DNA of 57,461 nt from a virus (lineage: Duplodnaviria > Caudoviricetes): the IMG/VR virus record IMGVR_UViG_3300036987_000087, positions 1 to 57,461 of that record; one strand, 5' to 3'. Shown here piece after piece: positions 1 through 57,411 of this stretch; within the stretch, counting starts at the first letter, position 1; every line of letters begins with the position of its first letter. The notes beneath the pieces are model-generated. The model was not told the origin of the DNA, did not search any database, and was given only the letters and a program-made list of their open reading frames with translations. The position numbers and the translations under genes were made by a program.

Positions 1-357
1 TTCGATGCCGCCACATCCATTCTGGTTTTTCATTTCATCCCCCACGACCAGCGCCTCGAAACTCTGAAGCAAGTTCGGCGTCGTTTGAGGACCGGTGCAC
101 CCTTCGTCTTGGTGCATCTCAGCTTCCGGCAGACGGAACCTGATCGGTCGATCTGGATTGCCCGTCATATCGCCTTCGGCCTGTCGAATGGATTAGACGC
201 CACCAATGCTGAGAGGGCACGCCAGGCAATCAGCGGTGGACTGACAATTAGCTCGCCCGAAGAAGACGTAGAGATGCTACGCCGTGCGGGATTTCCAAAT
301 GCGAGCCTATTCTACGCGGGATTGAGCATTAGAGGCTGGGTCGCTTACGCCGAATAG
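1..357 (+). CDS. 3' part of host class I SAM-dependent methyltransferase (CmoA-like), truncated by window edge
   Basis: Open frame from base 1: FDAATSILVFHFIP...LKQVRRRLRTGAPFVLV...LRRAGF...FYAGLSIRGWVAYA; lies outside the att repeat. Confidence 0.7.
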   Translation, partial: FDAATSILVFHFIPHDQRLETLKQVRRRLRTGAPFVLVHLSFRQTEPDRSIWIARHIAFGLSNGLDATNAERARQAISGGLTISSPEEDVEMLRRAGFPNASLFYAGLSIRGWVAYAE

Positions 358-430
358 GCTCTGTCCCAAGTGGGCGACTTTCGCCCAAACGTCGATTTAG
401 GATGAGGCATACCCCGGCCCAAAGGCCACA

Positions 431-482
431 TGGCGCACCCGAAGGGATTCGAACCCCTGGCCTCTGCCTTCGGAGGGCAGCG
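431..482 (-). repeat. att core, left copy (duplicated 3' 52 nt of tRNA-Arg)
   Basis: tggcgcacccgaagggattcgaacccctggcctctgccttcggagggcagcg is identical to 57335..57386. Confidence 0.97.
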
Positions 483-489
483 GGGTAGG

Positions 490-1680
490 CTAGTTTTGGC
501 AGGCGGTTTGATCAATAACGGTGGGAGAAACTAACATAGGCTGTGGGGGTAAGTCTCCCACTTCTCCCCCAGAAATCGGCGAAATGTCATTCAGGAAGGT
601 ATCGCCAACCTTGTGAACTTCGGCCGTCCACTCCTTGCGCTCAAGATGCCCATACAGCTTCGACAGCACCTCGATCGACTTCCACCCGCCGGCATCCTTG
701 ACGTACTGCAGCGAGTAACCGGCGCGAAGCATGCGCGTGGCGAAGCTGTGCCGGCCGAGCTCGTGCGGCGAGAAGTAGGGCACCTTGAGGCCGTCAATCA
801 GATCCTTGTGCGCTGTCGGCTTCAGCATGACCGCCACGGCTATAGCTTCGTCGTGGCCGGAGGCCAGAACGCACGCCTTCAGAATGTCGCGGCGCACGTT
901 GCTGTCGGCCTCAGGGCCATCTCGGAACAGCCAGCGGCGTGTCTTCCAATCCGGCATCGCCCGGATGAGCGCTGCGACGTGCGGGTGCAGGTCGATGAGC
1001 ATCGGCTCGCCGTTCTTGGTGCGGCCGATGGCGAGCGTCCCGTCCCGGTCGCTGAAATCCGCAGGCACGCGGCCCAGGGCGTCGCCAAGTCGCCGGCCGT
1101 GCATCGTCAGCATCGACACGAGTGCCTTGGTGTCCGCGCTCATGAAGGGCAGCACCGTCTGGAACCACGCCTTATCGGGGATGCTTACGGGCGGGCTGTC
1201 TTTGTAGCCCTTCGGCCGCGTCAACTGCGGGGCCTTTTCCTTGAGCGCCATCCGCAGAATTGCAAGAACCGGCGTGTAGAGGTGGCGGTTGACGTAGGCT
1301 GGAGACGGCGTCGGGCCGAACAGCTTCTGAGAGAGATCGATCATGAGCGTGTCGTCGATGGCCCGGCATTGGTAGTCGCCTAGCGCGTCGGCGATCTTCT
1401 CAGCGTAGATCGGCACGGAGTGGTGCTCGACGTAATTCGCCAGCGCCTGGCCGAACGCTAGGGGGACATAGAGGGCCTGCTCTTCATATGCGGCGTTGAG
1501 CTTGTCGACCTCTGCTTGCCGCGCCGCTGCCGTATCGCCGCCAATGCTATGCTCTTTCCGCTCCCTGGCAAAGCTGCCGTCTGGCTGGCGGATCGGGACG
1601 AACCCGCGCGCCGCCCAGTATTTCGTGCCGTCTTTCTTCGCGCGCCGGACGACGTTGAGTTTGGACCTGTATCCTCGCAT
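490..1680 (-). CDS. int: Tyrosine integrase
   Basis: Catalytic motifs HGRRLGD (R), RTKNG (K), PHELGRHSFA (HxxxR), AGGW, KLYGHL (Y); stop 7 bp from att; start taken as ATG 1680 (MRGYRSK). Confidence 0.93.
   Translation of the reverse strand: MRGYRSKLNVVRRAKKDGTKYWAARGFVPIRQPDGSFARERKEHSIGGDTAAARQAEVDKLNAAYEEQALYVPLAFGQALANYVEHHSVPIYAEKIADALGDYQCRAIDDTLMIDLSQKLFGPTPSPAYVNRHLYTPVLAILRMALKEKAPQLTRPKGYKDSPPVSIPDKAWFQTVLPFMSADTKALVSMLTMHGRRLGDALGRVPADFSDRDGTLAIGRTKNGEPMLIDLHPHVAALIRAMPDWKTRRWLFRDGPEADSNVRRDILKACVLASGHDEAIAVAVMLKPTAHKDLIDGLKVPYFSPHELGRHSFATRMLRAGYSLQYVKDAGGWKSIEVLSKLYGHLERKEWTAEVHKVGDTFLNDISPISGGEVGDLPPQPMLVSPTVIDQTACQN
520..575. promoter_or_regulatory. Candidate integrase arm-type sites
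   Basis: ctccccacttctccccca here resembles cccccactcttcccccac near the other att (57223..57240); inverted gtggg copies at about 521 and 544. Confidence 0.5.
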
Positions 1681-1865
1681 GTCTCCATTTCCTTCTTGTA
1701 GGCGTTGAGGAACACACGAGTGGTGTAGCATTCGCGGCCGTCTCTGACGACGCACCCGCGATCGCGCATGCGTTCACGAAGGGTTCGCGGGCTCGGGCCC
1801 CGGCCCTCTGGATAGAGCTCGGCCAGCGCTTCCTCGAACGTGATGTAGAAGGCCCTCTTCCCCAT
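1458..1865 (-). CDS. Putative excisionase/recombination directionality factor overlapping int
   Basis: Small basic protein with HTH-like N-terminus (ITFEEALAELYP...SPRTLRERMR) directly upstream of int. Confidence 0.6.
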   Translation of the reverse strand: MGKRAFYITFEEALAELYPEGRGPSPRTLRERMRDRGCVVRDGRECYTTRVFLNAYKKEMETCEDTGPNSTSSGARRKTARNTGRRAGSSRSASQTAALPGSGKSIALAAIRQRRGKQRSTSSTPHMKSRPSMSP

Positions 1866-2051
1866 CTAGGCCGCCTCCCTACGCTCATCGCTATACGGTA
1901 CTCGCTTCTCGACATAGGGCTGGATCTGCTTGTAGAGGTTGAATGCCTTGTCGGCGAAGGCTCGGATCTCCGCTACGGTTTCCGCCTCACGCTCCTGCCA
2001 GCGTGCGTGCTCGATCTGTTGCTGTATCCTCTGGACTTCTGATCTGGTCAT
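1866..2051 (-). CDS. Hypothetical protein
   Basis: ATGA-coupled to the upstream gene, GGAGGGG SD. Confidence 0.65.
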   Translation of the reverse strand: MTRSEVQRIQQQIEHARWQEREAETVAEIRAFADKAFNLYKQIQPYVEKRVPYSDERREAA

Positions 2052-2500
2052 CTTCCCCTCCTTGATCGGCCCATGTGAGCCTGTTGAACGCGCCACATGC
2101 GCTCCAAATCCCCCGTGTTGATCCATAAGGCGCTGGCGAGCTCGATCACGTCGTCGATGCCGCGCTCGCGAAACCATGCATCCTCAAGACGCGACGATAG
2201 GCCGTGCACGTCGTCGTGCTCGAAACGCAGCAGCGGCACCGTCCAACGATCCGAGGCCCGCCCGCCGCTTGCACGTCTCTCTTCACCGGCTGGCCCTGTT
2301 CGCAAATGGTGAGGATCACAAGGCCCTGCGCGGCCTGAAACGCACGACGGCAATTGTCGGATGAGGGCTAGATGCTCCTCGCTCATCCCGGGCCGGCGCG
2401 CGGCAGGCGGAATGCGTGCGTTCTTGGCCTTGTGCCTCTCCGTTACGGTCGGCTTTGGATTTGGTTGCCCGTATCCTGGTGGGCGGATCATCTGCGCCAT
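2048..2500 (-). CDS. DUF968-like putative His-Me nuclease
   Basis: HLALIRQLPSCVSG...CDPHHLR...SDRWTVPLLRFEHDDVH pattern. Confidence 0.7.
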   Translation of the reverse strand: MAQMIRPPGYGQPNPKPTVTERHKAKNARIPPAARRPGMSEEHLALIRQLPSCVSGRAGPCDPHHLRTGPAGEERRASGGRASDRWTVPLLRFEHDDVHGLSSRLEDAWFRERGIDDVIELASALWINTGDLERMWRVQQAHMGRSRRGR

Positions 2501-3193
2501 CTATGCGGCCTCCGGAGATGATTTAGGGGTGACGCCGCCAGAGGCGGCTATCGCGCAGGCGCGCGATGCGTTGAGAATGGTCATGATGCCTCGACCGATA
2601 AGCTCTGCCGCTTGCGGCACGACAGCGTTTCCGCACTGCTTGCGTCGGTCCACCCAATTGGGAAGCCCATCATCCGTTCCCAGTCGTGCGGGTGCAAAAT
2701 CTTGAGACTGTGCAAGCTGTGCCGCCACTTCCCGACCCGGCCCATGCCACCACCGCGACAGCTCCCGTAAGAGCTCGCCGTCGGCGTGGGCAACAAGGAA
2801 GATACGGGCGCGTTCATGGTGCGCTCCCACGTTTGAGGCTCGCACTCGAAACGGCACGCTGGCGTACCCGATGGCGTGCAACTCGCGCCGCAGTTCGGGC
2901 ACCCATCGCCGCCACGTATGGGCGACGTTTTCGATAACAATCCAATCAGGGCATAGGCCAGCCCGCTCCGCTTGCCGGCCAAGCCGATCCGCTTCCCGCT
3001 CACTGACAAGTCTTGACAGGGGAAGCCCGCGCAGAGAACGAATGTCTCCGTGGATGGGGGTGTCGGGCCAGTGTCGCTTGAGGACCGCGCGGCATTGATC
3101 GTCAATTTCGCAGAAGGCGACGGTTCGCATCCCGGATCTCTCGAGGCCGAGGCTAAACCCGCCGATGCCGCTGAATAGATCGACGACATTCAA
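2501..3193 (-). CDS. C5 cytosine methyltransferase alpha-type chain (motifs I-III, VI-VIII, X; no PCQ)
   Basis: DLFSGIGG, FCEID, IHGDI, WIVIENV, HHERARIFLVA, CGNAVVPQ; TTG start with GGAGG SD. Confidence 0.85.
   Translation of the reverse strand: MNVVDLFSGIGGFSLGLERSGMRTVAFCEIDDQCRAVLKRHWPDTPIHGDIRSLRGLPLSRLVSEREADRLGRQAERAGLCPDWIVIENVAHTWRRWVPELRRELHAIGYASVPFRVRASNVGAHHERARIFLVAHADGELLRELSRWWHGPGREVAAQLAQSQDFAPARLGTDDGLPNWVDRRKQCGNAVVPQAAELIGRGIMTILNASRACAIAASGGVTPKSSPEAA
2520..2575 (-). repeat. Double-hairpin element, copy 1
   Basis: Minus strand: CTCAACGC ATCGCGC-GCCT-GCGCGAT A GCCGCC-TCT-GGCGGC GTCACCCCTAAATC. Confidence 0.75.
2581..3189 (-). CDS. C5 cytosine methyltransferase beta-type chain in the +1 overlapping frame (motifs IV/V, TRD-like segment, IX)
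   Basis: VLCAGFPCQDLSVSGKRIGLAGKRSGL, LLPTPTAS, LHPHDWERMMGFPIGWT; ATG immediately after the upstream TGA. Confidence 0.8.
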   Translation of the reverse strand: MSSIYSAASAGLASASRDPGCEPSPSAKLTINAARSSSDTGPTPPSTETFVLCAGFPCQDLSVSGKRIGLAGKRSGLAYALIGLLSKTSPIRGGDGCPNCGASCTPSGTPACRFECEPQTWERTMNAPVSSLLPTPTASSYGSCRGGGMGRVGKWRHSLHSLKILHPHDWERMMGFPIGWTDASSAETLSCRKRQSLSVEAS

Positions 3194-3447
3194 GGGTTCC
3201 CTCCATTATTATCCGCGCGCACCCAGCGAACGCCAAGACAAGTGAACTCGCGAAGGTCTCCGGAAGCGTCGAAAGAAACCGCCCCACCTGGCGATGCCAA
3301 GACGTCGAACCCAGCTCCGTTTAGTTCTTGAAGGAATGCTTCTGTCTGTGATGTGGTCGTAGTCTCAAAATGCCATTTTCCGTGATGCAGGATGTTGGCA
3401 AGAACTATAAACCGGCTTGGTCCTGAAAAAACTTCGGAGATCATCAC
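3190..3447 (-). CDS. Hypothetical protein (AT-richer)
   Basis: Translationally coupled ORF within the operon. Confidence 0.6.
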   Translation of the reverse strand: MMISEVFSGPSRFIVLANILHHGKWHFETTTTSQTEAFLQELNGAGFDVLASPGGAVSFDASGDLREFTCLGVRWVRADNNGGNP

Positions 3448-3653
3448 CGCACCTCAACCTGGCTGTCAGGGAACTCGCGCATAAGGATGGTGACGGCCCG
3501 CAGTAAATCCGGGTTCCTATCGATAAACCCCATCGTCACCACGGCTTCCTTGGCGTTCTCGATGTCTCTCGGAGAAGGTTGCTCATCTAGTAGAGCGCAG
3601 CTTATTAGGGACTCTACCGCTTGCCTTTGCTCAATTAGAGATGGCTTGGTCAT
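3444..3653 (-). CDS. Hypothetical protein
   Basis: Coupled overlaps at both ends. Confidence 0.65.
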   Translation of the reverse strand: MTKPSLIEQRQAVESLISCALLDEQPSPRDIENAKEAVVTMGFIDRNPDLLRAVTILMREFPDSQVEVR

Positions 3654-4246
3654 GATGACTCACCAGTGGTAGGGCTATCGGTAGATTCAGAAGATTGGGG
3701 TGACGCCGCTCCGCGGCTATCGGCAGCCGCCGATGCGTTGAGTGCGTTCATGAACTCGCGCCGCGCACGATTGGGCGACCAGTATTGCAGCGTGACGCCA
3801 AGTGGCTTCGTGGTTGTGCTCCATGCTACTGGCGGCCGGGACATGTTCTGTGCGGCTTCATCGCTCAATATTGCCGTGTCCGCCGCCTTCACTTCATCTG
3901 GCATCGCGGATGGCAGACCAAACTTGCAGCAAACCGCCAGCATGATCTTATCCTCCGCCTCTCTGTAGCCCCTTAGAAACGGCTTAATCGGGCGTGGCAC
4001 GTCAACTAGGTACGCCTCACTGGCGTCGTGGAGCAGCGCCCATAGCCGGTGTTCCGGGGCGACTTGCCGCGAGAGCAACACGCTGTGCTCTGCCACGCTA
4101 TAGAAGCGGAGGCAGTGGCCGCCGAACCGACATAGCATCGACAGGGCGTGCGCTATGTCGTCCGCAAACACTTCTTCTGGGCGCGGGTCGATTGGCCAAA
4201 ACTGCCGGCCCATAGCGGTCTGTATCCAATCGCCACGGTGCATCAC
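3650..4246 (-). CDS. HD-domain phosphohydrolase (YfdR-like 5'-deoxynucleotidase)
   Basis: DIAHALSMLCRFGGH, YSVAEHS, ALLHDASEAYLVDVPRPIK, VKAAD. Confidence 0.9.
   Translation of the reverse strand: MMHRGDWIQTAMGRQFWPIDPRPEEVFADDIAHALSMLCRFGGHCLRFYSVAEHSVLLSRQVAPEHRLWALLHDASEAYLVDVPRPIKPFLRGYREAEDKIMLAVCCKFGLPSAMPDEVKAADTAILSDEAAQNMSRPPVAWSTTTKPLGVTLQYWSPNRARREFMNALNASAAADSRGAASPQSSESTDSPTTGESS
3693..3742 (-). repeat. Double-hairpin element, copy 2
   Basis: Minus strand: CTCAACGC ATCGGC-GGCT-GCCGAT A GCCGC-GGA-GCGGC GTCACCCCAATC; stems differ from copy 1 but still pair. Confidence 0.75.
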
Positions 4247-4503
4247 TCTCCCCCCTCACTCAGCGCCGCAGGCGCTATCGAGCCCTCTTGCGAGATAGGC
4301 GAATCCGTCACCCCGTTTAATTCGCTCCCCTTGCTCTTTGCCAAGTGGGAGAGGACGGCACGGGCTATGACGGCACCCCATTTGTCCTCTTTGCCGTGCA
4401 GGTAATATTTGGCGTCGGCGTTCTGGATGACGCCGGCCAGTTCCTCCACCTCGCGAAGATTGTCCAGCCGCTTCACAAGAGCTTTGGATGTGGGTTCTGT
4501 CAT
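4243..4503 (-). CDS. Hypothetical protein
   Basis: ATGA-coupled ORF MTEPTSK... Confidence 0.6.
   Translation of the reverse strand: MTEPTSKALVKRLDNLREVEELAGVIQNADAKYYLHGKEDKWGAVIARAVLSHLAKSKGSELNGVTDSPISQEGSIAPAALSEGGE
4255..4320 (+). repeat. Double-hairpin element, copy 3 (divergent, opposite orientation)
   Basis: CTCA...AGCGCC-GCA-GGCGCT, bulged GCC-CTC-TTGC-GAG-ATA-GGC hairpin, then CGTCACCCC. Confidence 0.5.
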
Positions 4504-4715
4504 GGGATTGCCTCGACCTTGGTCACCGTCACTGTGTACTCTTGCGAGACGCCATCGAAGCCGCCATGCACGTCGCTGATGTACCCGTAGATGACTACTG
4601 GCACGCGCATCTCTGCTGGGCACGGGCCTAGGCGCGGGCGCTTTGCAAACCGCTTGTTCAGAGCACCACGGCCGGTGAGTACGTCCAGAATTGCAAAGTC
4701 GGATTTGATCTTCAC
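4500..4715 (-). CDS. Hypothetical protein
   Basis: GTGA-coupled ORF with SD. Confidence 0.6.
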   Translation of the reverse strand: MKIKSDFAILDVLTGRGALNKRFAKRPRLGPCPAEMRVPVVIYGYISDVHGGFDGVSQEYTVTVTKVEAIP

Positions 4716-5401
4716 TTCCTCACCTCATCGTCGGTGGATTTAGTGTTGACGCTTTCGGCGCTGATGGGCGCCTCATCTGCGCTCAAGCCGCGCGGCTTGT
4801 TGAGTTCATTGCGCCAGTAGTCGATCAACGCAGCCCAAGGGCCGTCCCAAAATCGTCGGCAGCATGGGTCGTCGGTGTGAACAGCGGCGCTGCCGTAGTC
4901 GCAATACGAATACGCCCAGTCGAATTCTAGGAACTCGCGGTGAAATTCGTCTTCGTTAAACGGATGCGACATCTCATCGATGTCATTCCAGCGCGCGCGA
5001 GCCTCGTCCTTGTCGAGCGACCCAGTCTTGCGAGCGTCTAGGATGGTTTCACGGATATGCTTTATGGTTGCGTCGAAGTCGAAGCTTAGCCCGTTGCCAG
5101 CATGGGTTTTTCCCATGAAGTAGTCATACTCGACGTCGAGAAGGAATTCCCGCAGCGTTGGCGTGCCTGTTGCAGTCCAGACGTAAGCGTAGTTGCCATC
5201 GTCTGATTGGACATCTATCTGTCCGCCGCCCTTCCATTCCCTGATCGTTGCCACGGCCCAGGAGCGGCTGCTTCTCACCTTGTAGACGCGCGCAGTAGAC
5301 GTCGTGACCTCAAAGCCGGACTCAACACGCGCGCGCAGCGCAGCCGAAGGTGCCGAGCACCGAGGCGTCAACACTGAATCTCTATCTTCAATCTCTTCCA
5401 T
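4712..5401 (-). CDS. Phage hypothetical protein; both termini read through hairpin elements
   Basis: 229-aa ORF, globular-looking core (QSDDGNYAYVW...DYFMGK), low-complexity ends overlapping copies 4 and 5. Confidence 0.75.
   Translation of the reverse strand: MEEIEDRDSVLTPRCSAPSAALRARVESGFEVTTSTARVYKVRSSRSWAVATIREWKGGGQIDVQSDDGNYAYVWTATGTPTLREFLLDVEYDYFMGKTHAGNGLSFDFDATIKHIRETILDARKTGSLDKDEARARWNDIDEMSHPFNEDEFHREFLEFDWAYSYCDYGSAAVHTDDPCCRRFWDGPWAALIDYWRNELNKPRGLSADEAPISAESVNTKSTDDEVRK
4737..4804 (-). repeat. Double-hairpin element, copy 4
   Basis: Minus strand: CTCAA CAAGCCG-CG-CGGCTTG A GCGCAGATG...CATCAGCGC CGAAAGC GTCAACACTAAATC. Confidence 0.7.
5321..5380 (+). repeat. Double-hairpin element, copy 5 (inverted relative to copy 4)
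   Basis: CTCAACA...GCC GAA GGTGC-CGA-GCACC GA GGC GTCAACACTGAATC; 15/16 inverted match to the end of copy 4. Confidence 0.7.
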
Positions 5402-5407
5402 TAGGGC

Positions 5408-5743
5408 TCACTCCGCTGCTTCAACTTCAGCATCACCATCGGTGCTGCGAAGGAACAGAGCGTATGGCCCCTCATCGGTGTCGTAGACGCCTCCGAGTAT
5501 CCAACCCATTGGTGGCTCAGGTCGCCACTTCGTCAGGACGTTCTCTCCAGCCTCATAGAGCTTCATCAGGTCCGGGTCGAGCAGCGCACAGACCAGGCAG
5601 TGGAACCCGTTCTCGTTTGCCACACCGGATAGATCAGCCTCGGCTTCCGCGTAGTGGAACATCGCAGCCATGAGACCGCCATCGTCGTAGTCGACGAGTG
5701 TCTCTGGTGCCGGCATGTCTTCTGGTTTGATGATGGTGGTCAT
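5408..5743 (-). CDS. Hypothetical protein
   Basis: Coupled ORF with WRPEPPMGWILGGVYDTDEGPYALF. Confidence 0.7.
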   Translation of the reverse strand: MTTIIKPEDMPAPETLVDYDDGGLMAAMFHYAEAEADLSGVANENGFHCLVCALLDPDLMKLYEAGENVLTKWRPEPPMGWILGGVYDTDEGPYALFLRSTDGDAEVEAAE

Positions 5744-6318
5744 GCTGCCCTCTGTTGTGCTTCGCGCGCCTTGCGCTCGTGGTATGCGTTGATGAAATGC
5801 TGAACCTCGATGCCGGTGATGTGCTCGATCAGCGCGAACACGTCGCTGCGGATCGGCTCGAATTCGAGTTCGTCGAGCACGTCATGGGAGATTGACTTCG
5901 AGACGTAGAGGCACAGCGCGGGCTCGCCTTCGATGCGGCCTTCGCGAAGGAACGGATGCTCGCCCTTGGCCCGGAGCTTTTCCATCTGATGGCTGACAGA
6001 TGCGACGGTCATTGCGCTCAGCTTGGCGTTGCTGGAGAGCGGGTAATTGTCGGCCGTGCACCATCCGGCTCGGCAAAGTAAGTAGGCACGAAGTTTCTCC
6101 GTCTCGCCCGGAAGCGGATGTGGATCTGTGTTGTGCGGCCAGTGCTGAAGGGCATCCGATATAACCGCGAAAAAAAGATCGTGGGCCTTGCTGATCCTGG
6201 GAACCGATACGCGCGCCTTCAGCGGCTGACGCTCCGGCATCTTGGCCATAATCTCTTCCGCTTCGGCGTTCGCCGGCACGAGAGAACGGCCAACTCTTGT
6301 GAGGACCATGTCAGGCAT
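5740..6318 (-). CDS. NinB/DUF1367-like recombination accessory protein
   Basis: LVPA...PRISKAHDLFFAVI...KSISHDVLDELEF pattern; early recombination region. Confidence 0.55.
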   Translation of the reverse strand: MPDMVLTRVGRSLVPANAEAEEIMAKMPERQPLKARVSVPRISKAHDLFFAVISDALQHWPHNTDPHPLPGETEKLRAYLLCRAGWCTADNYPLSSNAKLSAMTVASVSHQMEKLRAKGEHPFLREGRIEGEPALCLYVSKSISHDVLDELEFEPIRSDVFALIEHITGIEVQHFINAYHERKAREAQQRAA

Positions 6319-6468
6319 CCTGCCCTCCCTCTTTCTTCCCCTGCTGAGCAACCTGCACAGGCTTAGGAGGGACAGCAGCACTTGCTCCGGCAGCACCGGC
6401 CACGGCTACGGTTTGCCCGCGTATGAGCTTCCCAGCCGCCTTGCGGATGATGTTGGTGATGGAGGGCA

Positions 6469-7002
6469 TTATGCTGCGCCTTTTGGCTGCGTCGTGACGA
6501 ACTCGACGCCGCTCATCATCTGGCCGCCGACGAGAACCATTGACGGTGCCCAGCCGTCGCCCATTACGAAGGCGTACGCCCGCTCCTTGCCCCAGCCTCC
6601 GGGGCGGCTCGCGCCCCAGCCGCCGTCTCCGTGTTCCGCGAGATGATCAGCAAGCTCTTCTTTGGTGGCGAACGGAGGCGATACCGGCGTGCCCTCGCTC
6701 ACGGTCTCCCAGAGCTGAAACCAAGTCGCCTCTTCATCCTTCCAGGGGCGATAGTAGTCTGGGTCGATTGGCTGACCTTCGTCGCACAGCCAATCCGCCA
6801 GCCCGCGCGGATAGACCTCGCGCTGAATGTCCGTGAGGTCGCCCGCGCGTATGCGATCGAAGTCTTCAAGCCACTCGGCAAAGCGCCGCTCGAATGTGCA
6901 GTCGTACATCGGCTGCAAGCCCGTGTGGCGGTAAGGATTGCGATCCGGGTTGCGCTTCGGGTGCCGCCAGTTCGGAGGCACTCGTCTGATTTCACGTCCC
7001 AT
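6469..7002 (-). CDS. Phage hypothetical protein
   Basis: MGREIRRVPPNWRHP...FQLWETVSEGTPVSPPF; coupled in the operon. Confidence 0.75.
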   Translation of the reverse strand: MGREIRRVPPNWRHPKRNPDRNPYRHTGLQPMYDCTFERRFAEWLEDFDRIRAGDLTDIQREVYPRGLADWLCDEGQPIDPDYYRPWKDEEATWFQLWETVSEGTPVSPPFATKEELADHLAEHGDGGWGASRPGGWGKERAYAFVMGDGWAPSMVLVGGQMMSGVEFVTTQPKGAA

Positions 7003-7319
7003 CAAGCGATCTCCAGTTGTGTCATGACGAAGCCACGGGCGGCAGCGTTCTGCCGGTGACCGGCCTCGCTGTCCTTCCATGTCGCGTATCGCTTCAGAAC
7101 CGTGAGCACGCCCGCCATGCCGAGCTGGAACTCGAGGTCGCGCTGCGACGGCTCAGGCTTCGGCGCCGGCAGCAGCCGCTCGATGATCGTGCGGAGTTGA
7201 GGCTCAAGCCCGAGGTCGATGCAGGCGATGATCTGCCCCTCGAATGATCCGAGGAGTCGATTGAGCGGATCCTCCCGCTCTTGGACAACCTCGTGGCGCA
7301 TGGCGGCGGCGGTGCTCAC
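7002..7319 (-). CDS. Hypothetical protein
   Basis: GTGA-coupled ORF. Confidence 0.55.
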   Translation of the reverse strand: MSTAAAMRHEVVQEREDPLNRLLGSFEGQIIACIDLGLEPQLRTIIERLLPAPKPEPSQRDLEFQLGMAGVLTVLKRYATWKDSEAGHRQNAAARGFVMTQLEIA

Positions 7320-7798
7320 AGCAGCGCCCCCACATTGCAACCGCCCGTCGTCCAGTCGATGTCTAGCCCGTCGAGGAAGCGCTCTAGCTCGTGGCGGCCA
7401 TCGTCTGCCTTGCCAGCCTTCAACGTGTCCCGAGCCTTGACGAGGTCTGGCAGGCCGTCGCGAAGTCGACCGGCTGCGCTCTCCAGGCTCTCATTATCAT
7501 TTCGTAGATCGTTCACCTCGTCTTCGAGGTCGCCGTTCTCCTCGCCCAGTTCCTCGATGCGATCCTCCAACTCGATCATCTTGGCGCGGGCCGTGGCTAG
7601 GTCGTCCGCAAGCGCAGCTTTCTGGCGCGCAAGGGTTAGCGCCAGGCGTGCGAGGCGAGTGATGCGCTTCGATGCGCGTTTGCGCTCATCTTCGGACGCC
7701 TTGATGATCGCCGCCTGGTTGAGTATGACCAGCTTCAGATCAGCAGCCTGACGCTCGAAGTCTTCCGGCTCGTCGACTAGTGCTGCACTTCCCGACAT
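7316..7798 (-). CDS. Coiled-coil hypothetical protein
   Basis: Heptad-rich sequence, GAGGGGG SD. Confidence 0.7.
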   Translation of the reverse strand: MSGSAALVDEPEDFERQAADLKLVILNQAAIIKASEDERKRASKRITRLARLALTLARQKAALADDLATARAKMIELEDRIEELGEENGDLEDEVNDLRNDNESLESAAGRLRDGLPDLVKARDTLKAGKADDGRHELERFLDGLDIDWTTGGCNVGALL

Positions 7799-7846
7799 GA
7801 CTTCCCCCTCGGGGCAGATACGCAAGCACGCGGTAGAAAGTGGCGA

Positions 7847-8950
7847 TCAGCCGCCTATTTGCATCGGCATGACGATCATGATCTGCTGCGGGACTTCCTT
7901 AGACGTCACGACGACCGGTGAATTCGCATCGTCGATGTGGAACTCGAGGGGGACGTCTCCGAACGTCTTCGCGACTGTCGCCACGTAGTCGGCGTTTAGT
8001 CCGACGAACTTTTCCGCGTCCAGTATTTCCGCGTCGACAACCTCGTGCGCTGCATCAACGCCGCTGCGCTTGGCTCCAATGACGAGCCCGTCTGCGTCAC
8101 TGCTCAGCTTCACGCGGACGGTTTGCTTCTCGTCCAGGGCGGCGCGGCGCGCGCGGTCGACGGCGGCGGCGAATGGCTCGGCGTCTACGATGAATGATGC
8201 CCCGTTGTAGCGAGGGATGACGCGCTGGTAGTCGGGATAGGTGCCGTCGATGAGCTTGGTCATGATCGTGGCCGCGTCTGCCGCGACGATGACCTGCCGC
8301 TCCGTGACCTTTATCGTCGCCTCGCCATCGGACAGAAGCCCGGCAATCAGGGATGCGGCTGCTGTTGGGATGATCACACTCGGCATGGTCTCGGCACCCG
8401 CCGGCAGCGCCATCGTGCGGCGGCAGAGCCGGTGGCCATCCGTTGACGCGGCGGCGAGCTTGCCCTCGAAGATGTGCAGGAACACGCCGCACATGTAATA
8501 CCGCGTCACCTCTGTGCATACAGACGGTATCGTGGCAACCATCAGGGACTTGAACTCGGCGGCGTCGACCGTAAAGCCTGCGCCTTCCTCTGGCTTCATG
8601 GCGGGGAAGTCTTCAGGGCTCAGCGTCTGCAGCTGGTACCGCGCGCGGCCAGACTTGATCGTCAGCCGGTCCCCGGCGTGTTCAAGATCGCAGATTGAGC
8701 CCTTCGGCAGTGCTGCGACGATGGAATGCAGTGTCCTGCCGTTGACCGTGGTGGCGCCCGGTGTGTCGATCTCGGCTGCAGCTTTAGCGGAGCACTCGAT
8801 ATCCAGCGATGATGCCCGAACGGACAGGTACCCCGCATCGGCCGTCATCAGCACATGGCTCAGGACCGGGATAGTCGTTCTCTGCGGGCTGCAGTCCTTC
8901 ACCTCGGCCAAGAGGTCGACGAGAGCAGTCGTTTCCATTGTGAGTTTCAT
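7847..8950 (-). CDS. dnaN: Phage-encoded DNA polymerase III beta sliding clamp
   Basis: TTIPVLSHVL, TRYYMCGVFL, ASTDGHRL, KLIDGTYPDYQRVIP, C-terminal IVMPM; 367 aa. Confidence 0.92.
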   Translation of the reverse strand: MKLTMETTALVDLLAEVKDCSPQRTTIPVLSHVLMTADAGYLSVRASSLDIECSAKAAAEIDTPGATTVNGRTLHSIVAALPKGSICDLEHAGDRLTIKSGRARYQLQTLSPEDFPAMKPEEGAGFTVDAAEFKSLMVATIPSVCTEVTRYYMCGVFLHIFEGKLAAASTDGHRLCRRTMALPAGAETMPSVIIPTAAASLIAGLLSDGEATIKVTERQVIVAADAATIMTKLIDGTYPDYQRVIPRYNGASFIVDAEPFAAAVDRARRAALDEKQTVRVKLSSDADGLVIGAKRSGVDAAHEVVDAEILDAEKFVGLNADYVATVAKTFGDVPLEFHIDDANSPVVVTSKEVPQQIMIVMPMQIGG

Positions 8951-9792
8951 TCGTCGTTCCCCAGGATTTCGAGCGCTTTCGCTTTGTTCGCTGGCGACAG
9001 GCGCTCAAGCATGTCGGCCGCCACGTCGCGCAGCTCCTGCACGTCGCTTGCGCTCTCGCACCATCCGCGTTGTTCACGCAGGCTTTCGATGTAGGCGTCC
9101 TGATCGGCCAGAGGCTCGTCGCCAGGGTCTAGATCGGGAACACCGAGGCCGGTTTGTGCCACTTCGGTGGGTGAATGTTCCTGAGCGGGAGCGGCGGTGA
9201 GGTCAGGGATTTCGACTTGTGCGCGCGGAGTGATGTTCACCGGATCGCGCTCTGGCTGATCGAGTTCCTCGGTGACATAGAGACCGCCGAGAACGTCAGC
9301 GGCCCCGTCGCGAGCAGCGAAGCCACGCGCGCGCATTTGCAGCATGCGCTCCGGGTACTGTTTCCAGGGCCCGGCCTTCGTCCAGAGCCCCGCCTCTTTG
9401 GCGGTCTCGACCGAGAACGTGCGCTCCACCTTGTCGCCGGTCGGCCGCGTGATTTCACAATGAGCGACGCGCTTGTCGCCTTCTCCCGTGAGCCACTCGC
9501 GCAGCTTGAATCCCTTGCCCCAGAGCAGCGCCGGTATGGCATCGCCCCAGATCGACGGGCGCCCATTGATGACAGCGATTTTCTGGACCGCGAACATCGG
9601 CGGAAGTCCGAGTTCCATCCCTGTCATGATGGCGACCATGACCTGCTCGGGTTTGTCCATGCCCTTCGGCGCAAGGCCGCTGAGTGCGATGCCGTTGGCC
9701 AGCCGGAATGCCTCGTCAAGCGACTGAGGCACGATGCCGGCGATAGCTCCGCCAGACTTCAGCGCGACGACGTTGGTTGCTGGGGTGCTCAT
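8947..9792 (-). CDS. RecT/Red-beta-like ssDNA annealing protein
   Basis: GMELGLPPMFAVQKIAVINGRPSIWGDA...WKQYPERMLQMRARGFAARD...DVLGGL. Confidence 0.8.
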   Translation of the reverse strand: MSTPATNVVALKSGGAIAGIVPQSLDEAFRLANGIALSGLAPKGMDKPEQVMVAIMTGMELGLPPMFAVQKIAVINGRPSIWGDAIPALLWGKGFKLREWLTGEGDKRVAHCEITRPTGDKVERTFSVETAKEAGLWTKAGPWKQYPERMLQMRARGFAARDGAADVLGGLYVTEELDQPERDPVNITPRAQVEIPDLTAAPAQEHSPTEVAQTGLGVPDLDPGDEPLADQDAYIESLREQRGWCESASDVQELRDVAADMLERLSPANKAKALEILGNDE

Positions 9793-10289
9793 GCTACGTG
9801 TCTCCATCCTTCGCCGTTGCGAATTTTTCGAACCAAGCTCGGGGACACGCTGAGCAACGCGGCCAGTTCTCGTGCGGAAGTAGAGGTCGAGCGGATTGTC
9901 CGCACGGCCTCGGCGGTCAGCTTGGCGCTACCCTGGCGCTCGCCGCATGCCATTGTGCCGTGCTCGTGCTTCTGCGCGTGGTTCGCCTTCCGCAGCAGCC
10001 ATGAGATGTTGTCGGCGGTGTTGTTGGCCTTGTCGCCGTCGCCGTGCGCCGCCTCGTGGATCGGAGACGGCCGGGGCCCGTGGAATGCCTCGGCGACGAG
10101 GTGATGGACGAACACGGTTTTCGCGCGCCCGTTGTCGCGCAGCATGACGCGCAGGTAGCCCTTGCCGCGATCGCCGTTCTTGAGGATGGCGCCCGGCTTG
10201 CCCCATCGGCCGCCAGCAATGCGCCTGACGCGCCCGAGGCTGGACACCTGATAGGTCGAAAAGCCTGCGACTGGTTTCCAGATTTCCAT
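9789..10289 (-). CDS. NUMOD4-HNH homing endonuclease
   Basis: EIWKPV...YQVSSLGRVR; VHHLVAEAFHG...AAHGDGDKANNTADNISW. Confidence 0.9.
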   Translation of the reverse strand: MEIWKPVAGFSTYQVSSLGRVRRIAGGRWGKPGAILKNGDRGKGYLRVMLRDNGRAKTVFVHHLVAEAFHGPRPSPIHEAAHGDGDKANNTADNISWLLRKANHAQKHEHGTMACGERQGSAKLTAEAVRTIRSTSTSARELAALLSVSPSLVRKIRNGEGWRHVA

Positions 10290-11267
10290 CTACGCAGCCA
10301 CCTTCTCGACGGTCTCCGTCACGCCGGGCACCGTCGCGCCGGCCTTCGCCTGAGCGCAGCAGACTTTCTCGACAGCCTCACGGATGGCCGGGTGATCCTT
10401 GCAGTGCGCCAGAGCGGCGGCGAAGTCGGTGACGACGTACTTGGTGACGGTGCGTAGGCCAGTCTTGCGCCCGCGCTGCCCTCCGGCTTGAACGCGAACC
10501 GGCTCGACGGGAGGTGGAGCCGGCAGCGGTTCGGGTTCCGGCGAGGACAGGGCCAGCGCGGGGTCGGAATCCATCAGCGCCTTGCGCTCATCTTCGCGGC
10601 GCTTGTTCTCCGCTGCGATGCGTTCTGCTTCTGCCCTGCGCTTGGCGTCGGCCTCGGCCTGAAGGCGCTTTTCTTCGTCGCGCATGTAGGCGGTTAGCGC
10701 ATCGCGAAGCTGGCTTGCGGCTGCGTCGGCGTCATCAATCATCGGCTTGTAGGAAGCGTCGACCTCGCGGCTAGCTTCGAGGTGAGGGCGCTTTTTTGTC
10801 TCACGCTCAGCGTCGGCGCGCTTGCGCAGTTCGAGCAACTTCTGCCGCATGTTTGCAGCGGCGTCCTTGCTCGTTGCGTCCTTTATTCCTCCCTTGCGCA
10901 GCCACTCGATGGCGCGCGCCGCGTAGTCGTGAATTTGCTCGGCCAGAGAAACGTCGCCGCTGTTATCTCCGATTGTCGCGGGGGCATCGCCTAGCCATGC
11001 GTCGCCATTGGCGAACGCATGCATCGCCGCTTCCTTGGTCACCGGCTTGTCGGCGACATAGGTCCACACCTCGATGGCGGGGCGATAGTTCTTAGCCGAT
11101 CCGACGAGCGCCACGAGCGCGCCGTCTTTCAGGTAGATGCATACGGGAAGGAACGGGCCGCCCTTGTGCTGGCGCACCCTGTAGTAGCCCGCATGCGGCT
11201 GGTCCGCGTAGATCGGCGGCATGTTGCCGGCGAGCGCTTCGTTCCAGTACGTCAGGTCGTTGCTCAT
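10290..11267 (-). CDS. Coiled-coil phage protein of the recombination module
   Basis: 325-aa ORF with long helical middle, upstream of the RecT-like gene. Confidence 0.7.
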   Translation of the reverse strand: MSNDLTYWNEALAGNMPPIYADQPHAGYYRVRQHKGGPFLPVCIYLKDGALVALVGSAKNYRPAIEVWTYVADKPVTKEAAMHAFANGDAWLGDAPATIGDNSGDVSLAEQIHDYAARAIEWLRKGGIKDATSKDAAANMRQKLLELRKRADAERETKKRPHLEASREVDASYKPMIDDADAAASQLRDALTAYMRDEEKRLQAEADAKRRAEAERIAAENKRREDERKALMDSDPALALSSPEPEPLPAPPPVEPVRVQAGGQRGRKTGLRTVTKYVVTDFAAALAHCKDHPAIREAVEKVCCAQAKAGATVPGVTETVEKVAA

Positions 11268-32908: not shown

Positions 32909-33986
32909 GAAGGTTTGGGCGCAGGTCGGCCTCATCGAGATCGAGGTGATGCCGGTCGATCACGTCGAGGCTCTCGTCAGGAAGCAGGCCGACGACGCCG
33001 GCGAGCGTGCTCGATCCATTATCGACGCGCTGAGGCGGCAGGCCGAAGTCTACGCCGCACAAGCCGAAACCCGCGCCCGCGCTGCGATCGCTGCGGAGGG
33101 TGGACGCCACACGCGCAATTGGACGGCTGCGGTCAAGGCCGGAACGCAGATCGACGTCGCTAAGTTGCTGGCTGATGACGATCTGGTGCAGCTGCTCTCG
33201 GTGAAGTCGGAGGAGTTCGTCGGCCTCATCAAGAACCTGACGGAGGACATGGCCTACCGCATCAACCGTGAGGTGCTCGGGTCTATTCTTGAAGGCCGGT
33301 CGAACGCGGACATCGCCAAGGCGCTGACGAACATCGAGGACATCGGGCGCGGCCGAGCAAGGCTCATCGCTCGGGACCAGGCCAACAAGCTGAACGGGGC
33401 CATGAACCGCTTCAGGCAGGAGCAGGCTGGCATAACTCATTTTAAGTGGAAGACGATCATCGACGGCCGGCAGCGCGACAGTCACGGCGCTCGTGACAAC
33501 AAGATTTACCCGTGGGACGCCCCGCCGAGCGGTGAGATCCCGGGCGGCCCAATCAACTGCCGGTGCCGCGCATTGGCCGTCCTCATCGATACGCCAGAGG
33601 ATGCCGCAGAGTTTGGTGCCGAGGGTGATCCAGAGGATCCGTTCGACCCGAGTAGCGAGGGGCTGATCGATACCGTCGCCGGCACGATGGGCGAGAACGT
33701 CTTTGCGATGAACCGAGAAGCCGCGCTGATCCGACAGGCCGAAGCGCGTAAGGCAAGAGACATCATCGAGGCCGCAAGGAAGGCGGCAGAGTTCACCGAG
33801 GCCGACGCAGAGGCGCTGTTCGAGCGCGTGTTCGGCTTCTCGCCTGAAGGCCAGGACTTGGCCCGCATGTCGGGCTCAAACGCACTCATCACCCGGTATC
33901 GGTCGCTTCTATTCGCTGCGATCCAGCAACGCATATCGACGATTGAAGAACTTGCCGAGCACGCTGCCGCTACGGCTTCAAACTAG
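32730..33986 (+). CDS. Minor head protein (Mu gpF/SPP1 gp7 family)
   Basis: RARLIARDQANKLN...W...DGRQRDSH...PGGPINCRC. Confidence 0.85.
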   Translation: MLSFKLSKMLPKGRQRRQIVLRPVLPTQAFEIDLLTTLNGCVKSMLTWTRANVLEVVRAEKVWAQVGLIEIEVMPVDHVEALVRKQADDAGERARSIIDALRRQAEVYAAQAETRARAAIAAEGGRHTRNWTAAVKAGTQIDVAKLLADDDLVQLLSVKSEEFVGLIKNLTEDMAYRINREVLGSILEGRSNADIAKALTNIEDIGRGRARLIARDQANKLNGAMNRFRQEQAGITHFKWKTIIDGRQRDSHGARDNKIYPWDAPPSGEIPGGPINCRCRALAVLIDTPEDAAEFGAEGDPEDPFDPSSEGLIDTVAGTMGENVFAMNREAALIRQAEARKARDIIEAARKAAEFTEADAEALFERVFGFSPEGQDLARMSGSNALITRYRSLLFAAIQQRISTIEELAEHAAATASN

Positions 33987-34518: not shown

Positions 34519-35205
34519 ATGAGGACCAATCCCGCTGACATGATCGGCTCGCGCTACGGGCGCCTGATTGTTGAGGCGCTCGATGGGCGTGGTAGGCGGG
34601 GCATAGCGCTCATGCGCTGCCAATGCGACTGCGGCACGTCGAAAGTCGTGGCGGCCTATCATCTCGTCCGTGGCGATACGGTAAGTTGTGGTTGCTGGGC
34701 ACGCGAGAAGAGCGTTGAGATCGCCCGAAAGCAGGGCATGGCCAACCGGCGACACGGCGAGAGCTCGTACCAGGGCCGGCGCACAACGCCAGAGTTCAAC
34801 GCGCACGCGGGGATGATGGCGCGGTGTTTCAACCCCGACGACGCCGCGTACGGTAACTATGGCGGGCGCGGGATTAGAGTCTGCGAGCGATGGGCCAAGG
34901 GCGAAGACGGGCTCTCTGGCTACGAGTGTTTCCTTGCTGATATGGGGCGGCGTCCATCGGCGTCGCATTCGATAGACCGCCGCGAAAACTCGAAGGGCTA
35001 CTCGAAAAGCAACTGCCGCTGGGCCACCAAAAAAGAGCAGAGCCGCAATCGCCGCGGTCTCCATGTCGTGGAGTACAGCGGTGTCTCGATGCCCCTCTCT
35101 CAGGCGTGCGAGGAGGCCGGGCTGAGCTATTGGATGGTCAAGCGTCGCATCTATCGCGGCTGGTCAACGCACGACGCGCTCACAACGCCCTGCCTGACGC
35201 GCTAA
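34519..35205 (+). CDS. HNH-like homing endonuclease
   Basis: CQCDCG...SCGC...YGGRGIRVCERW...SIDRRENSKGYSKSNCRWAT...QSRN. Confidence 0.85.
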   Translation: MRTNPADMIGSRYGRLIVEALDGRGRRGIALMRCQCDCGTSKVVAAYHLVRGDTVSCGCWAREKSVEIARKQGMANRRHGESSYQGRRTTPEFNAHAGMMARCFNPDDAAYGNYGGRGIRVCERWAKGEDGLSGYECFLADMGRRPSASHSIDRRENSKGYSKSNCRWATKKEQSRNRRGLHVVEYSGVSMPLSQACEEAGLSYWMVKRRIYRGWSTHDALTTPCLTR

Positions 35206-54514: not shown

Positions 54515-55435
54515 ATGGCCAAATCTGTGGTGCCATCCGTGCCCGCGCATCTCGAAGTCATGCGTGGGTGGCTCGGAACAAAGGAGATCAAGGGGCCGAG
54601 GGCGAACCCGATCATCGCCGGGACGCCGCAGAGCTGGTCGGCGCTTGTCGATCGTCCCGACGTCACGAGCGACGAGGTGGCCAACTGCGCCATGGCCGGC
54701 GGGGCCGCTCTGGTTGCGGCTGAGTTCTTCAAGGCCGAATACGAACTGAAGGATTTGATCAAGGGCGGCCCGAGCGCACTCACCATCCTGGCCCAGCAGG
54801 GAATTTTTGTCCCGCTGCCGCCGAAGGATCAGCGCCTTCTCGCGCAGTCCTACAATAGCTATGGCACCGATGCCCGAAAGAACCCGCAGCCGGGTGACAT
54901 TATGATCCTGCCCCGCGGCGACGTGCGCTGGCAGGGCCATTTCGTTTTCCTCGACACCTACCTCGGCAACGGCCGCTGGCGCTGCATCGGAGCCAACCAG
55001 TCGGACACCACCAGCTATGCCGAGCACCACGTCTCGGAGGCCATGGCGATCCGCCGTTATGTCCCGCCGACGATCAAGGATCTGCGCGCCGCCGGAAGCC
55101 AGGCCATCGCCCGTGGTGACCAGCAGGAGGCCGCCGGCGCCGCCTTGGCCGTAGGCGTTCCCGCCGTGACCGTCGCCGCCAAGGTGGTAGAGGCGAGCGC
55201 GTCGCAGCCAGCCGTGGACGCTGCCGCCAACCTTCCGCAACTCGCTGAGCAGACGGGCGTCCTGCACACGCTGACCACAACCGGTGTCGCCATGGGCAAC
55301 CTCGTCCTGCAGAGCCCGTGGCTCGTCGGCTGCGTCGGTGCCGGCATTCTCGTCTGGTACCTCGGCCGCACCGGGAAGCTTCGCCGCCTCGCCTCGCACA
55401 TCGCAGGCGCTCCGCTCTCTACGCAGACTTCATAA
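54515..55435 (+). CDS. Endolysin candidate (TIGR02594-like NlpC/P60) with C-terminal hydrophobic helices
   Basis: LGTKEIKG...NP.I...DEVANCA...PGDI...WQGHFVF...IGANQSD. Confidence 0.75.
   Translation: MAKSVVPSVPAHLEVMRGWLGTKEIKGPRANPIIAGTPQSWSALVDRPDVTSDEVANCAMAGGAALVAAEFFKAEYELKDLIKGGPSALTILAQQGIFVPLPPKDQRLLAQSYNSYGTDARKNPQPGDIMILPRGDVRWQGHFVFLDTYLGNGRWRCIGANQSDTTSYAEHHVSEAMAIRRYVPPTIKDLRAAGSQAIARGDQQEAAGAALAVGVPAVTVAAKVVEASASQPAVDAAANLPQLAEQTGVLHTLTTTGVAMGNLVLQSPWLVGCVGAGILVWYLGRTGKLRRLASHIAGAPLSTQTS

Positions 55436-57334: not shown

Positions 57335-57411
<77 letters not shown>

Follow-up and report, generated by a model that had tools for sequence, protein, structure and literature searches.

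Hairpin-bearing repeats mark the borders of exchanged accessory genes in otherwise dissimilar temperate phages

Introduction

Five short DNA elements lie at gene ends in the accessory stretch of a prophage whose sequence, referred to here as the window and analysed in full (positions 1-57,461 of an IMG/VR virus record), was read earlier for unusual features. They belong to a family of repeats of 50-75 nt that recurs in temperate phages otherwise sharing almost nothing, between which its blocks are conserved at 85-100% identity, and in sequence comparisons the elements form the borders of segments that differ or agree between these phages. Each element consists of a subtype-specific palindromic 5' module, often after CAAC, followed by a second hairpin, a CGTCAAC box and an A/T-rich (T)RAATC tail. 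An earlier note on this DNA, drawn from the letters of the window, had proposed that such sites bound cassettes and shuffle early genes, a proposal that is supported as an evolutionary pattern. As for how the exchange would take place, we lean towards the elements being portable gene-junction modules of temperate phages that offer homology at which phage or host recombination functions exchange gene cassettes, a reading in which our confidence stops somewhat short of even.

The five elements of the window

The coordinates and motifs first reported for copies 1, 2, 4 and 5 stand, and those of copy 3 do not. Copy 1 (subtype 1, 2520-2575, minus strand) reads CTCAAC, a hairpin ATCGCGC/GCGCGAT, CGATAGCC, a hairpin GCCGCC/GGCGGC, GTCACCCC and TAAATC, and makes up the final ~25 codons of an apparently frameshifted C5 methyltransferase open reading frame (ORF). 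Copy 2 (subtype 1, 3693-3742, minus strand) has the shorter stems ATCGGC/GCCGAT and GCCGC/GCGGC and is a C-terminal extension of an HD-type dNMP phosphatase. Copy 4 (subtype 4, 4737-4804, minus strand) is composed of CTCAAC, the palindrome AAGCCGCGCGGCTT, GAGCGCAG, a hairpin GATG/CATC, GCGTCAACAC and TAAATC; it forms the C-terminal tail of a protein here called P0002 and has relatives in the phage contigs G2, G4 and G6 described below. Copy 5 (subtype 5, 5321-5380, plus strand) reads CTCAAC, GCGCGCGCAGCGCAGCCG, GAAG, a hairpin GGTGC/GCACC, CGAG, GCGTCAACAC and TGAATC, and is inverted with respect to the operon, its antisense reading giving the N-terminal ~30 residues of P0002. Copy 3 (subtype 3, ~4245-4303) contains TCGCCTATCTCGCAAGAGGGCTCGATAGC, a hairpin GCGCC/GGCGC and CTGAGTGAGG, and has no GTCAAC box. 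It had been taken for the most divergent copy and placed on the plus strand; it forms a subtype of its own, and its conserved block (4254-4303) reads on the minus strand, so that it points the same way as copies 1, 2 and 4 instead of being inverted.

Copies 1, 2, 4 and 5 have in common a 3' part made of GSCGTCAMC and then (T)RAATC, in which the CGTCAAC box reads CGTCACC in copies 1 and 2. The pattern CTCAACN{25,55}CGTCAMC occurs five times in the window against 0.19 expected, a number that none of 100 shuffles reaches; the matches are these four copies and an unrelated one at 40965. The 3' box GCGTCAMCMC is likewise found five times (0.86 expected), and the 17-nt outer end GATTYAGKGKTGACGCC fits copies 1, 4 and 5 with 0-1 mismatch. 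The nested inverted repeats attributed to copies 4 and 5 are present, both the outer one, with 15/16 matching positions (4737-4752 and 5365-5380), and the inner pair TGTTGAGT/ACTCAACA. Copies 2 and 3 had also been thought to bracket the HD gene as inverted repeats; GGGGTGACG and CGTCACCCC do flank this gene, and the claim holds for a match of 9-10 nt but not for the whole elements.

As had been observed from the start, reading frames run through the repeats: each of the five copies falls within an ORF and is translated, copies 1-4 as the C-terminal tails TILNASRACAIAASGGVTPKSSPEAA, MNALNASAAADSRGAASPQSS..., ..SPISQEGSIAPAALSEGGE and NELNKPRGLSADEAPISAESVNTKSTDDEVRK. The blocks shared by copies 1 and 2 are nevertheless read in different frames, GATAGCC giving A-I-A versus D-S and GCGTCACCCC giving G-V-T-P versus A-S-P, which indicates that it is the DNA and not the peptide that is conserved.

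Relatives of the elements and phage breakpoints

Beyond the window, members of the family were found in six other IMG/VR phage contigs (G1, G2 and four more) and in ~20 metagenome contigs. The seven carrier contigs, window included, measure 42-98 kb, plus one fragment of 4.9 kb, and have a GC content of 56-62%. Five homologues of P0002 are present in a large protein collection; one of them ends in ..ELDASRACAIAEPPTSGAGV, the peptide of copy 1, and another ends like copy 4. In G1 (L231), a subtype-1 element closes the P0002 homologue, and 29 of its first 30 bases are those of copy 1, which in the window sits on the methyltransferase; the alignment of copy 1 with G1 covers 31 nt at 97% identity. 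The 23-nt core of subtype 1 led to G2, where an element ends an unrelated gene (phrog_8514, 254 aa) and 43 nt are 100% identical to copy 1. The copy 1-type core thus closes three unrelated genes in three phages. A search with the subtype-5 pattern yielded four further IMG/VR contigs and, in a metagenome collection, 43 stretches with 37 distinct sequences, ~20 of which read as canonical and the remainder as GC-rich chance matches.

G2 is particularly rich in copies. Nearly each gene end in its integrase-proximal 4 kb has an element, including clear relatives of copies 4 and 5, and further copies are located at ~6, 25, 43, 54, 62, 74 and 92 kb. One of them (54919-54969) matches copy 3 at 86% over 51 nt, with a two-pair compensatory swap that turns the stem GCGCC/GGCGC into GCCGC/GCGGC. 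A cassette of G2 bounded by elements (L238:1715-1999, plus strand) encodes a Lar-like restriction alleviation protein (phrog_599), which fits arrays made up of host-takeover or anti-defence genes. Separately, two contigs of 253 and 210 nt in the probable source metagenome match copy 2 alone (window 3681-3744) with 3-4 differences and then continue into unrelated sequence, so that further subtype-1 copies exist elsewhere in that sample, in other contexts.

Searches in other directions gave negative results. A genome collection, searched at one genome per species, does not contain the exact 23-nt core of subtype 1. The 80 phage loci in which a relative of the HD gene is encoded are all free of elements, which implies that the elements do not travel with it. 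P0002 alone found no related locus among viral contigs, and the P0002-family alignment found none in genome contigs and one viral locus.

The phages that carry the family have little else in common. When protein families were compared across the seven carriers (blastp, E<1e-8), none occurred in more than 4/7, the one found in four being the homing-type HNH endonuclease phrog_374; the window has a free-standing gene of this kind amid the late genes (34519-35205, plus strand), and G1 has two copies. At the DNA level, 50 inter-contig blastn segments were recorded at E<=1e-4. Elements overlap 33 of them, on both sides in 28 cases and on one side in five, even though their own share of the sequence is just 0.5-1.0% in the full contigs and 3% in the 4.9-kb fragment. 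The window and G2 align solely at copies 1, 3 and 5. The only gene that the window has in common with G1 is P0002, and the blastn match (4740-5381) reaches from the AATC at the outer edge of copy 4 to the GATT at the outer edge of copy 5, the flanks being unrelated.

G2 (1-4 kb) and G4 (32.9-36.5 kb) have collinear arrays that share conserved islands at the junctions with identities of 88-100% (79 nt, 89%; 123 nt, 96%; 32 nt, 100%; 312 nt, 94%). The 312-nt block starts at the 5' edge of a subtype-1 element, and the bodies between islands are unrelated and differ in length (754 versus 326 nt, 680 versus 1454 nt). Arrays of the window, G1, G2, G4, G5 and G6 contain a divergent pair of copies with their CGTCAAC ends pointing outward that brackets 0.45-2 kb. 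The earlier note had suggested looking for synteny breakpoints at the elements and for further, covarying copies in other phages; the edges of inter-phage homology do fall at the elements, and the copies and the covariation (next section) were found as well.

In several pairs of copies the flank past CGTCAAC is identical for 42-71 nt, and the hairpin just before it is wholly different yet still paired. This is the case of G2 601-656 and G4 32925-32983, and in L273:404-452 (minus) versus L297:613-664 (minus) the difference is confined to the hairpin tip. These comparisons suggest that the second hairpin either evolves much faster than its surroundings or is exchanged as a unit. The sequencing runs on record were five of DNA, from groundwater and coal metagenomes, and none of RNA. 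Four of the five, compared with positions 1-9000 of the window, gave the source contig, short fragments of the same phage at low depth and no listed joint of two elements save one unsupported entry, from 4266 to 2520 with 13 letters between, in one run; no inference on recombination or expression is drawn from it.

Anatomy and covariation of the second hairpin

Four subtypes are told apart by their 5' module: (CAAC)GCATCG-stem-loop-stem-CGATAGC in subtype 1, TCGCCTATCTCGCAAGAKGGCTCGATAGC in subtype 3, the perfect palindrome AAGCCGCGCGGCTT and then GAGCGCAG in subtype 4, and GCGCGCGCAGCGCAG in subtype 5. Subtypes 1, 4 and 5 share a 3' module of A-G-S-C, GA or GAA, a stem-loop, GA, G-S-C, GTCAAC (sometimes GTCACC or GTCGAC), 2-6 bases and (T)RAATC(C). 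Within this module, the second hairpin has an outer helix of 3 bp, G-S-C/G-S-C, which a purine-rich internal loop, GA(A)/GA, separates from an inner stem of 4-8 bp of free sequence with a short loop, which is CGT in 12/40 and CGAT in 7/40 of the copies screened. The span from AGSC to GSCGTC is 18-21 nt in the listed copies. By script, 32 distinct inner stems were counted among the 40 screened copies, at least four of which are probably false positives.

The double hairpins of the earlier note could not be established from the window alone, given that single-sequence DNA folds set against shuffles reach a z of -3.7 for copy 1 and only -1.7 to +1.0 for copies 2-5, no better than the shuffles. 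For the second hairpin, by contrast, the claim is supported by comparison with relatives. In a MAFFT alignment of 11 subtype-5 copies, RNAalifold pairs the S of AGSC with the S of GSCGTC, as CG in six copies, as GC in five and broken in none. A covariance model of the 3' module (R1), built from 34 copies, scores 52 hits at E<=0.001 over the 416,673 bases of the carrier contigs and loci, 34 of these hits being its training rows, and one place with an E of 0.13 in the 616,152 bases of the 80 HD-gene phage loci used as control. Within the window the covariance model marks just the four places of copies 5, 1, 4 and 2, namely 5336-5384 on the plus strand (E 1e-13) and 2516-2555 (E 1e-4), 4733-4784 (E 0.003) and 3687-3724 (E 0.075) on the minus strand.

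Over the 52 aligned copies the outer helix is paired in 99.4%, its middle pair being CG in 25, GC in 25, UA in one and something else in one. The inner helices are paired in 67-70% in fixed columns, a figure kept low by stem registers that vary among copies, and each of their pairs shows between 6 and 22 double changes. Covariation scores 0.459 versus 0.137 in shuffles, none of 500 of which reaches that value, and slid controls give 0.03-0.11. The 52-copy alignment was fitted to the model, which favours structure, and the independent MAFFT/RNAalifold analysis agrees with it on the outer helix. When the hairpin was refolded on both strands with RNA parameters, the top strand was the stabler one in 39/50 copies, the bottom strand in 7/50 and neither in 4/50, with a mean difference of -1.5 kcal/mol that is mostly due to the purine-rich internal loop. 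Pairing is also kept between homologous positions of different phages, since the G1 copy that corresponds to copy 5 has the stem GGTC/GACC instead of GGTGC/GCACC.

These results bear on the simplest alternative, namely that the elements are chance or low-complexity coding sequence of a GC-rich genome. The poor single folds of copies 2-5 would agree with it, and so would the first loose scans of IMG/VR, in which CTCAACN{25,55}GCGTCAMCMC gave at least 120 stretches and the same pattern plus AATC gave 26, both sets being judged chance matches without hairpins. Against it stand the enrichment of the pattern in the window, the contrast between carriers and controls obtained with R1 and the 33 of 50 shared segments that overlap elements. 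Chance is refuted, its probability being practically nil, because 43 nt are identical at 100% between phages that cannot otherwise be aligned and because the hairpin covaries.

Prophage setting and the accessory stretch

The prophage lies between a full tRNA-Arg(CCG) gene at its right end (57335-57411), the gene in which it is integrated, and a copy of the tRNA-Arg 3' part at its left end (~433-480), which constitutes the left attachment repeat and adjoins the integrase; bases 1-432 are host flank and could be used for naming the host. The tyrosine integrase (490-1755, minus strand; PF00589, phrog_1) is the last gene of a leftward early operon and lies 0.8 kb past copy 1. This operon runs from ~12.5 kb to the integrase and encodes an exonuclease (10290-11267, phrog-family match), an HNH endonuclease, a RecT-like protein (8947-9807, phrog-family match), a beta-clamp and a NinB/Orf-like mediator, followed by small accessory genes. 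The HNH gene is of the NUMOD4-HNH type and lies between the RecT-like and exonuclease genes (9789-10289, minus strand), and the beta-clamp is a DNA polymerase III clamp of the phage's own (7847-8950, minus strand).

All five elements fall in the accessory stretch, which comprises P0002, an ORF of 71 aa, an ORF of 86 aa, the HD gene, two small ORFs and the C5 methyltransferase. P0002 (4712-5401, minus strand) belongs to phrog_13202, a family with no assigned function, and is bracketed by copy 5 at its start and copy 4 at its end, the GTCAAC..AATC ends of both pointing outward. Its AlphaFold2 model has a mean pLDDT of 70.5 that drops below 50 at residues 1-33, which copy 5 encodes, and at residues 205-229, which copy 4 encodes, so that the element-encoded ends of the protein are predicted to be disordered. 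The model has no match in the PDB by Foldseek at E<=0.001. As P0002 is present in just 2/7 carriers, it is not the enzyme of the element.

The 86-aa ORF (4243-4503, minus strand) has copy 3 as its 3' end. Next comes the HD-domain deoxyribonucleoside 5'-monophosphate (dNMP) phosphatase (3650-4246, minus strand; phrog_318, E 4e-64), which carries copy 2 as a tail; 20 of its homologues, read and trimmed to the matched start, stop at 171-188 aa, compared with 198 in the window. The C5 cytosine DNA methyltransferase (2501-3193, minus strand), with copy 1 as its tail, is matched by PF00145 and phrog_363 in pieces of two overlapping frames, and for this reason it is apparently frameshifted or else affected by assembly indel errors; motif I and the C-terminal part are in one frame and the PCQ region in the other.

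Orientation of the elements and a possible RNA function

The elements are placed precisely at the point where an accessory gene gives way to the ribosome-binding site of the following one, and a minority is inverted at gene 5' ends. In the window, copies 1-4 run with the operon and copy 5 against it. For 54 copies, the 5'-flanking gene is codirectional with the element in ~29 and opposed to it in ~18, the remainder being undecided; the flanking coding strand was called from the open frame plus the GC content of third codon positions (GC3), which is a rough call, and a GC3-based caller proved too noisy at 60% GC. In 16/54 copies the longest element-direction ORF has its in-frame stop in the conserved tail TRA (TAA or TGA), and in the others the ORF crosses the tail in another frame and stops later, near the next start codon.

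Such a location just upstream of the ribosome-binding site and start codon of the next gene would suit RNA elements of polycistronic early transcripts that, bound by a factor of the host or the phage, act on mRNA stability, on processing or on translational coupling; recombination at them would then follow from their conservation only, as in the PeSLs of T4-type phages. This reading is also favoured by the read-through of ORFs, since ribosomes would unfold the elements, by the A/U-rich single-stranded tail that follows the hairpin and by the greater stability of the hairpin on the top strand, which is the mRNA strand for 4/5 window copies. However, the copies occur in mixed orientation, which weakens it, and the inverted copy at the start of P0002 keeps its pairing in G1. 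In addition, Rfam gives no match at E<=5 on either strand of window positions 1800-6000. Promoter-like sites number three in positions 1800-6500, no excess over shuffles (mean 1.8), with none of them inside an element, and no terminator-like site falls inside an element either, the hairpins running into GTCAAC and not into a T run. The repeated RNA motif that the earlier note had mentioned as an option has therefore become less likely, the copies being found in both orientations relative to flanking genes, and we consider an RNA function rather unlikely.

Several resemblances of the elements to known motifs were considered and dropped. A hammerhead-like core in copy 4 is missing from other subtype-4 copies and has no Rfam match. 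Likeness of the tail to a tRNA T-arm or att core was discarded on sequence grounds, and a kink-turn on the same grounds alone. For an ECF-type or sigma-70 promoter the spacer would be the variable hairpin, Xer/dif, sfx and lambda arm sites have few bases in common with the element, and the CcrM motif GANTC is present in some tails only.

Candidate enzymes and mobility

The main array is located 1-4 kb upstream of a PF00589 tyrosine integrase gene in 5/6 contigs (window, G1, G2, G5 and G6). This proximity fits a dedicated, attC-like form of site- or structure-specific recombination, in which the neighbouring integrase, or else an enzyme of the host, would bind the top strand in its folded form (second hairpin plus CGTCAAC), cleave it at one set position and so capture and excise single-gene cassettes. 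The covariation of the hairpin between invariant boxes, its strand-biased folding, the switch at the GSCGTCAMC box in three comparisons and the shared orientation of most copies of an array at gene 3' ends speak in the same sense. On the other hand, temperate phages usually keep accessory genes near int anyway, no recombinase family is common to the carriers, G4, which is rated complete, has an array but no PF00589 match, and copies of G2 lie tens of kb from the integrase. The earlier note had also suggested looking for a co-occurring recombinase or HUH gene; the Y1/HUH transposase family (PF01797) has no match in 5/5 carrier phages searched, compared with control matches in 6/14 genomes. Nor do the ends of the element pair as in attC, in line with what had been observed at the outset: in copies 2, 4 and 5 the 5' box, ACTCAAC, conforms to RYYYAAC, but the 3' box GTCAAC/GTCACC is a direct and not an inverted repeat of the 5' box, and two adjacent hairpins take the place of one long one. 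Taken together, site-specific recombination is an unlikely though serious explanation. By analogy with integrons, one may also think of a phage-borne form of gene capture in which a host or phage recombinase would move single accessory or anti-defence genes between unrelated temperate phages by way of a new kind of site, with two hairpins that fold on one DNA strand, a CGTCAAC crossover box and translation into a disordered protein tail, which we likewise hold to be unlikely.

It is equally conceivable that the elements are non-autonomous mobile sequences, selfish palindromes of the MITE, REP or RPE kind, that a host transposase would move into gene ends. They are in fact short, palindrome-rich, dispersed in both orientations and translated in frame, with identical cores beside unrelated genes. 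Contrary to this idea, the ends of the element are not inverted repeats of one another, the flanks of the P0002 unit (GGTG and TCTA) show no target-site duplication, no empty site was found, and CAAC is absent 5' of many subtype-5 copies. Moreover, the copies are few, as shown by the metagenome counts and by the absence of the 23-nt core given above, and they are positioned at gene junctions and not at random; no Y1 transposase was found. This makes a mobile-element origin improbable.

Portable junction modules as the favoured reading

If the elements are portable gene-junction modules, their conserved blocks would act as common homology at which co-infecting phages or resident prophages swap single genes. 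The RecT-like annealing protein, the exonuclease and the NinB/Orf-like mediator of the phage, together with host RecA, may supply the exchange functions, and a crossover between two direct copies would remove a gene or release it as a circle. The strand-biased, covarying hairpin may in turn expose or mark single-stranded DNA, or pause replication, and in this way focus the exchange.

Several observations weigh against this interpretation. The invariant blocks, of ~18 nt plus 9-16 nt, are at or below the lengths usually held to support efficient homologous exchange. Passive homology leaves unexplained the covarying hairpin, the stability of the top strand (39/50 versus 7/50) and the wholly different hairpin tips that lie between identical flanks (L273/L297 and G2 601/G4 32925). 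The switch point at or beside the GSCGTCAMC box in three comparisons would also fit a fixed crossover site, and a recombination product was never directly seen. Finally, the carriers are all derived from metagenomes, and since these are few, with G2 and G4 coming from one sample, the copies are not fully independent.

It has long been asked how unrelated phages come to trade accessory genes one at a time, among them those for methylases, nucleotide phosphatases and restriction-alleviation proteins. The idea of conserved 'linker' sequences at the borders of modules is decades old and has had few concrete examples, the PeSLs of T4-like phages being one. The family described here is defined and searchable in temperate phages, and its mechanism can be tested as homology-driven or enzyme-driven. 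For annotators it provides a marker of cassette borders in the accessory regions of prophages, and it accounts for the odd low-complexity tails on genes of these regions.

Comparison with known systems

A literature search by core strings and words, which does not reach some 1.7 million articles of PubMed Central or the bulk of the subscription journals, found no such elements described, and the repeat family is thus provisionally regarded as undescribed. It shares traits with several known systems. Like the elements, attC sites mark the 3' end of single genes that lack a promoter and follow one another in the same direction, with a tyrosine recombinase gene nearby; they keep their structure with free stem sequence, carry short flanking boxes and fold in a strand-specific manner, and the stop codon is often inside or just after the site. 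Unlike attC, with its single hairpin, the elements have two adjacent hairpins and no complementary RYYYAAC/GTTRRRY ends, and some of them are inverted or far from the integrase, G4 having no integrase match at all.

REP and BIME sequences resemble the elements in being short GC-rich hairpins with a conserved flanking motif that are repeated at gene ends, and the layout of a hairpin with an adjacent box recalls the sites recognised by HUH enzymes (IS200/IS605, RAYT). REPs are, however, extragenic and present in hundreds per host chromosome, whereas the elements are inside ORFs, few in number and so far confined to phage-like contigs. Rickettsia palindromic elements (RPEs) are selfish palindromic repeats translated in frame inside genes, longer and restricted to one bacterial lineage; the elements differ from them in being placed at gene termini and junctions of phages and in coinciding with cassette borders. 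The stoperators of cluster A mycobacteriophages resemble the elements as short asymmetric sites present in many copies at the gene ends of operons; they are repressor sites of 13-14 bp, specific to the immunity of one phage and without hairpins, whereas the elements are common to phages with no detected shared protein family, repressors included.

The PeSLs (promoter-early stem-loops) of T4-type phages are described as small stem-loop motifs between non-essential genes that combine a sigma-70-like promoter with a terminator, border inserted, deleted or replaced genes and are thought to drive modular shuffling (Arbiol et al. 2010, PMC2839356). Both families are conserved stem-loop motifs in variable regions at the borders of gene exchange, and PeSLs differ in containing a promoter and a terminator, in being intergenic and in belonging to lytic T4-like phages. 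The elements, for their part, show no promoter or terminator signature, are inside ORFs and translated, possess two hairpins and a CGTCAAC box and occur in temperate phages that are otherwise dissimilar. PeSLs in T4-type phages are reportedly also the subject of a further paper by Comeau et al. in 2014. PeSLs represent the closest described case to the family found here.

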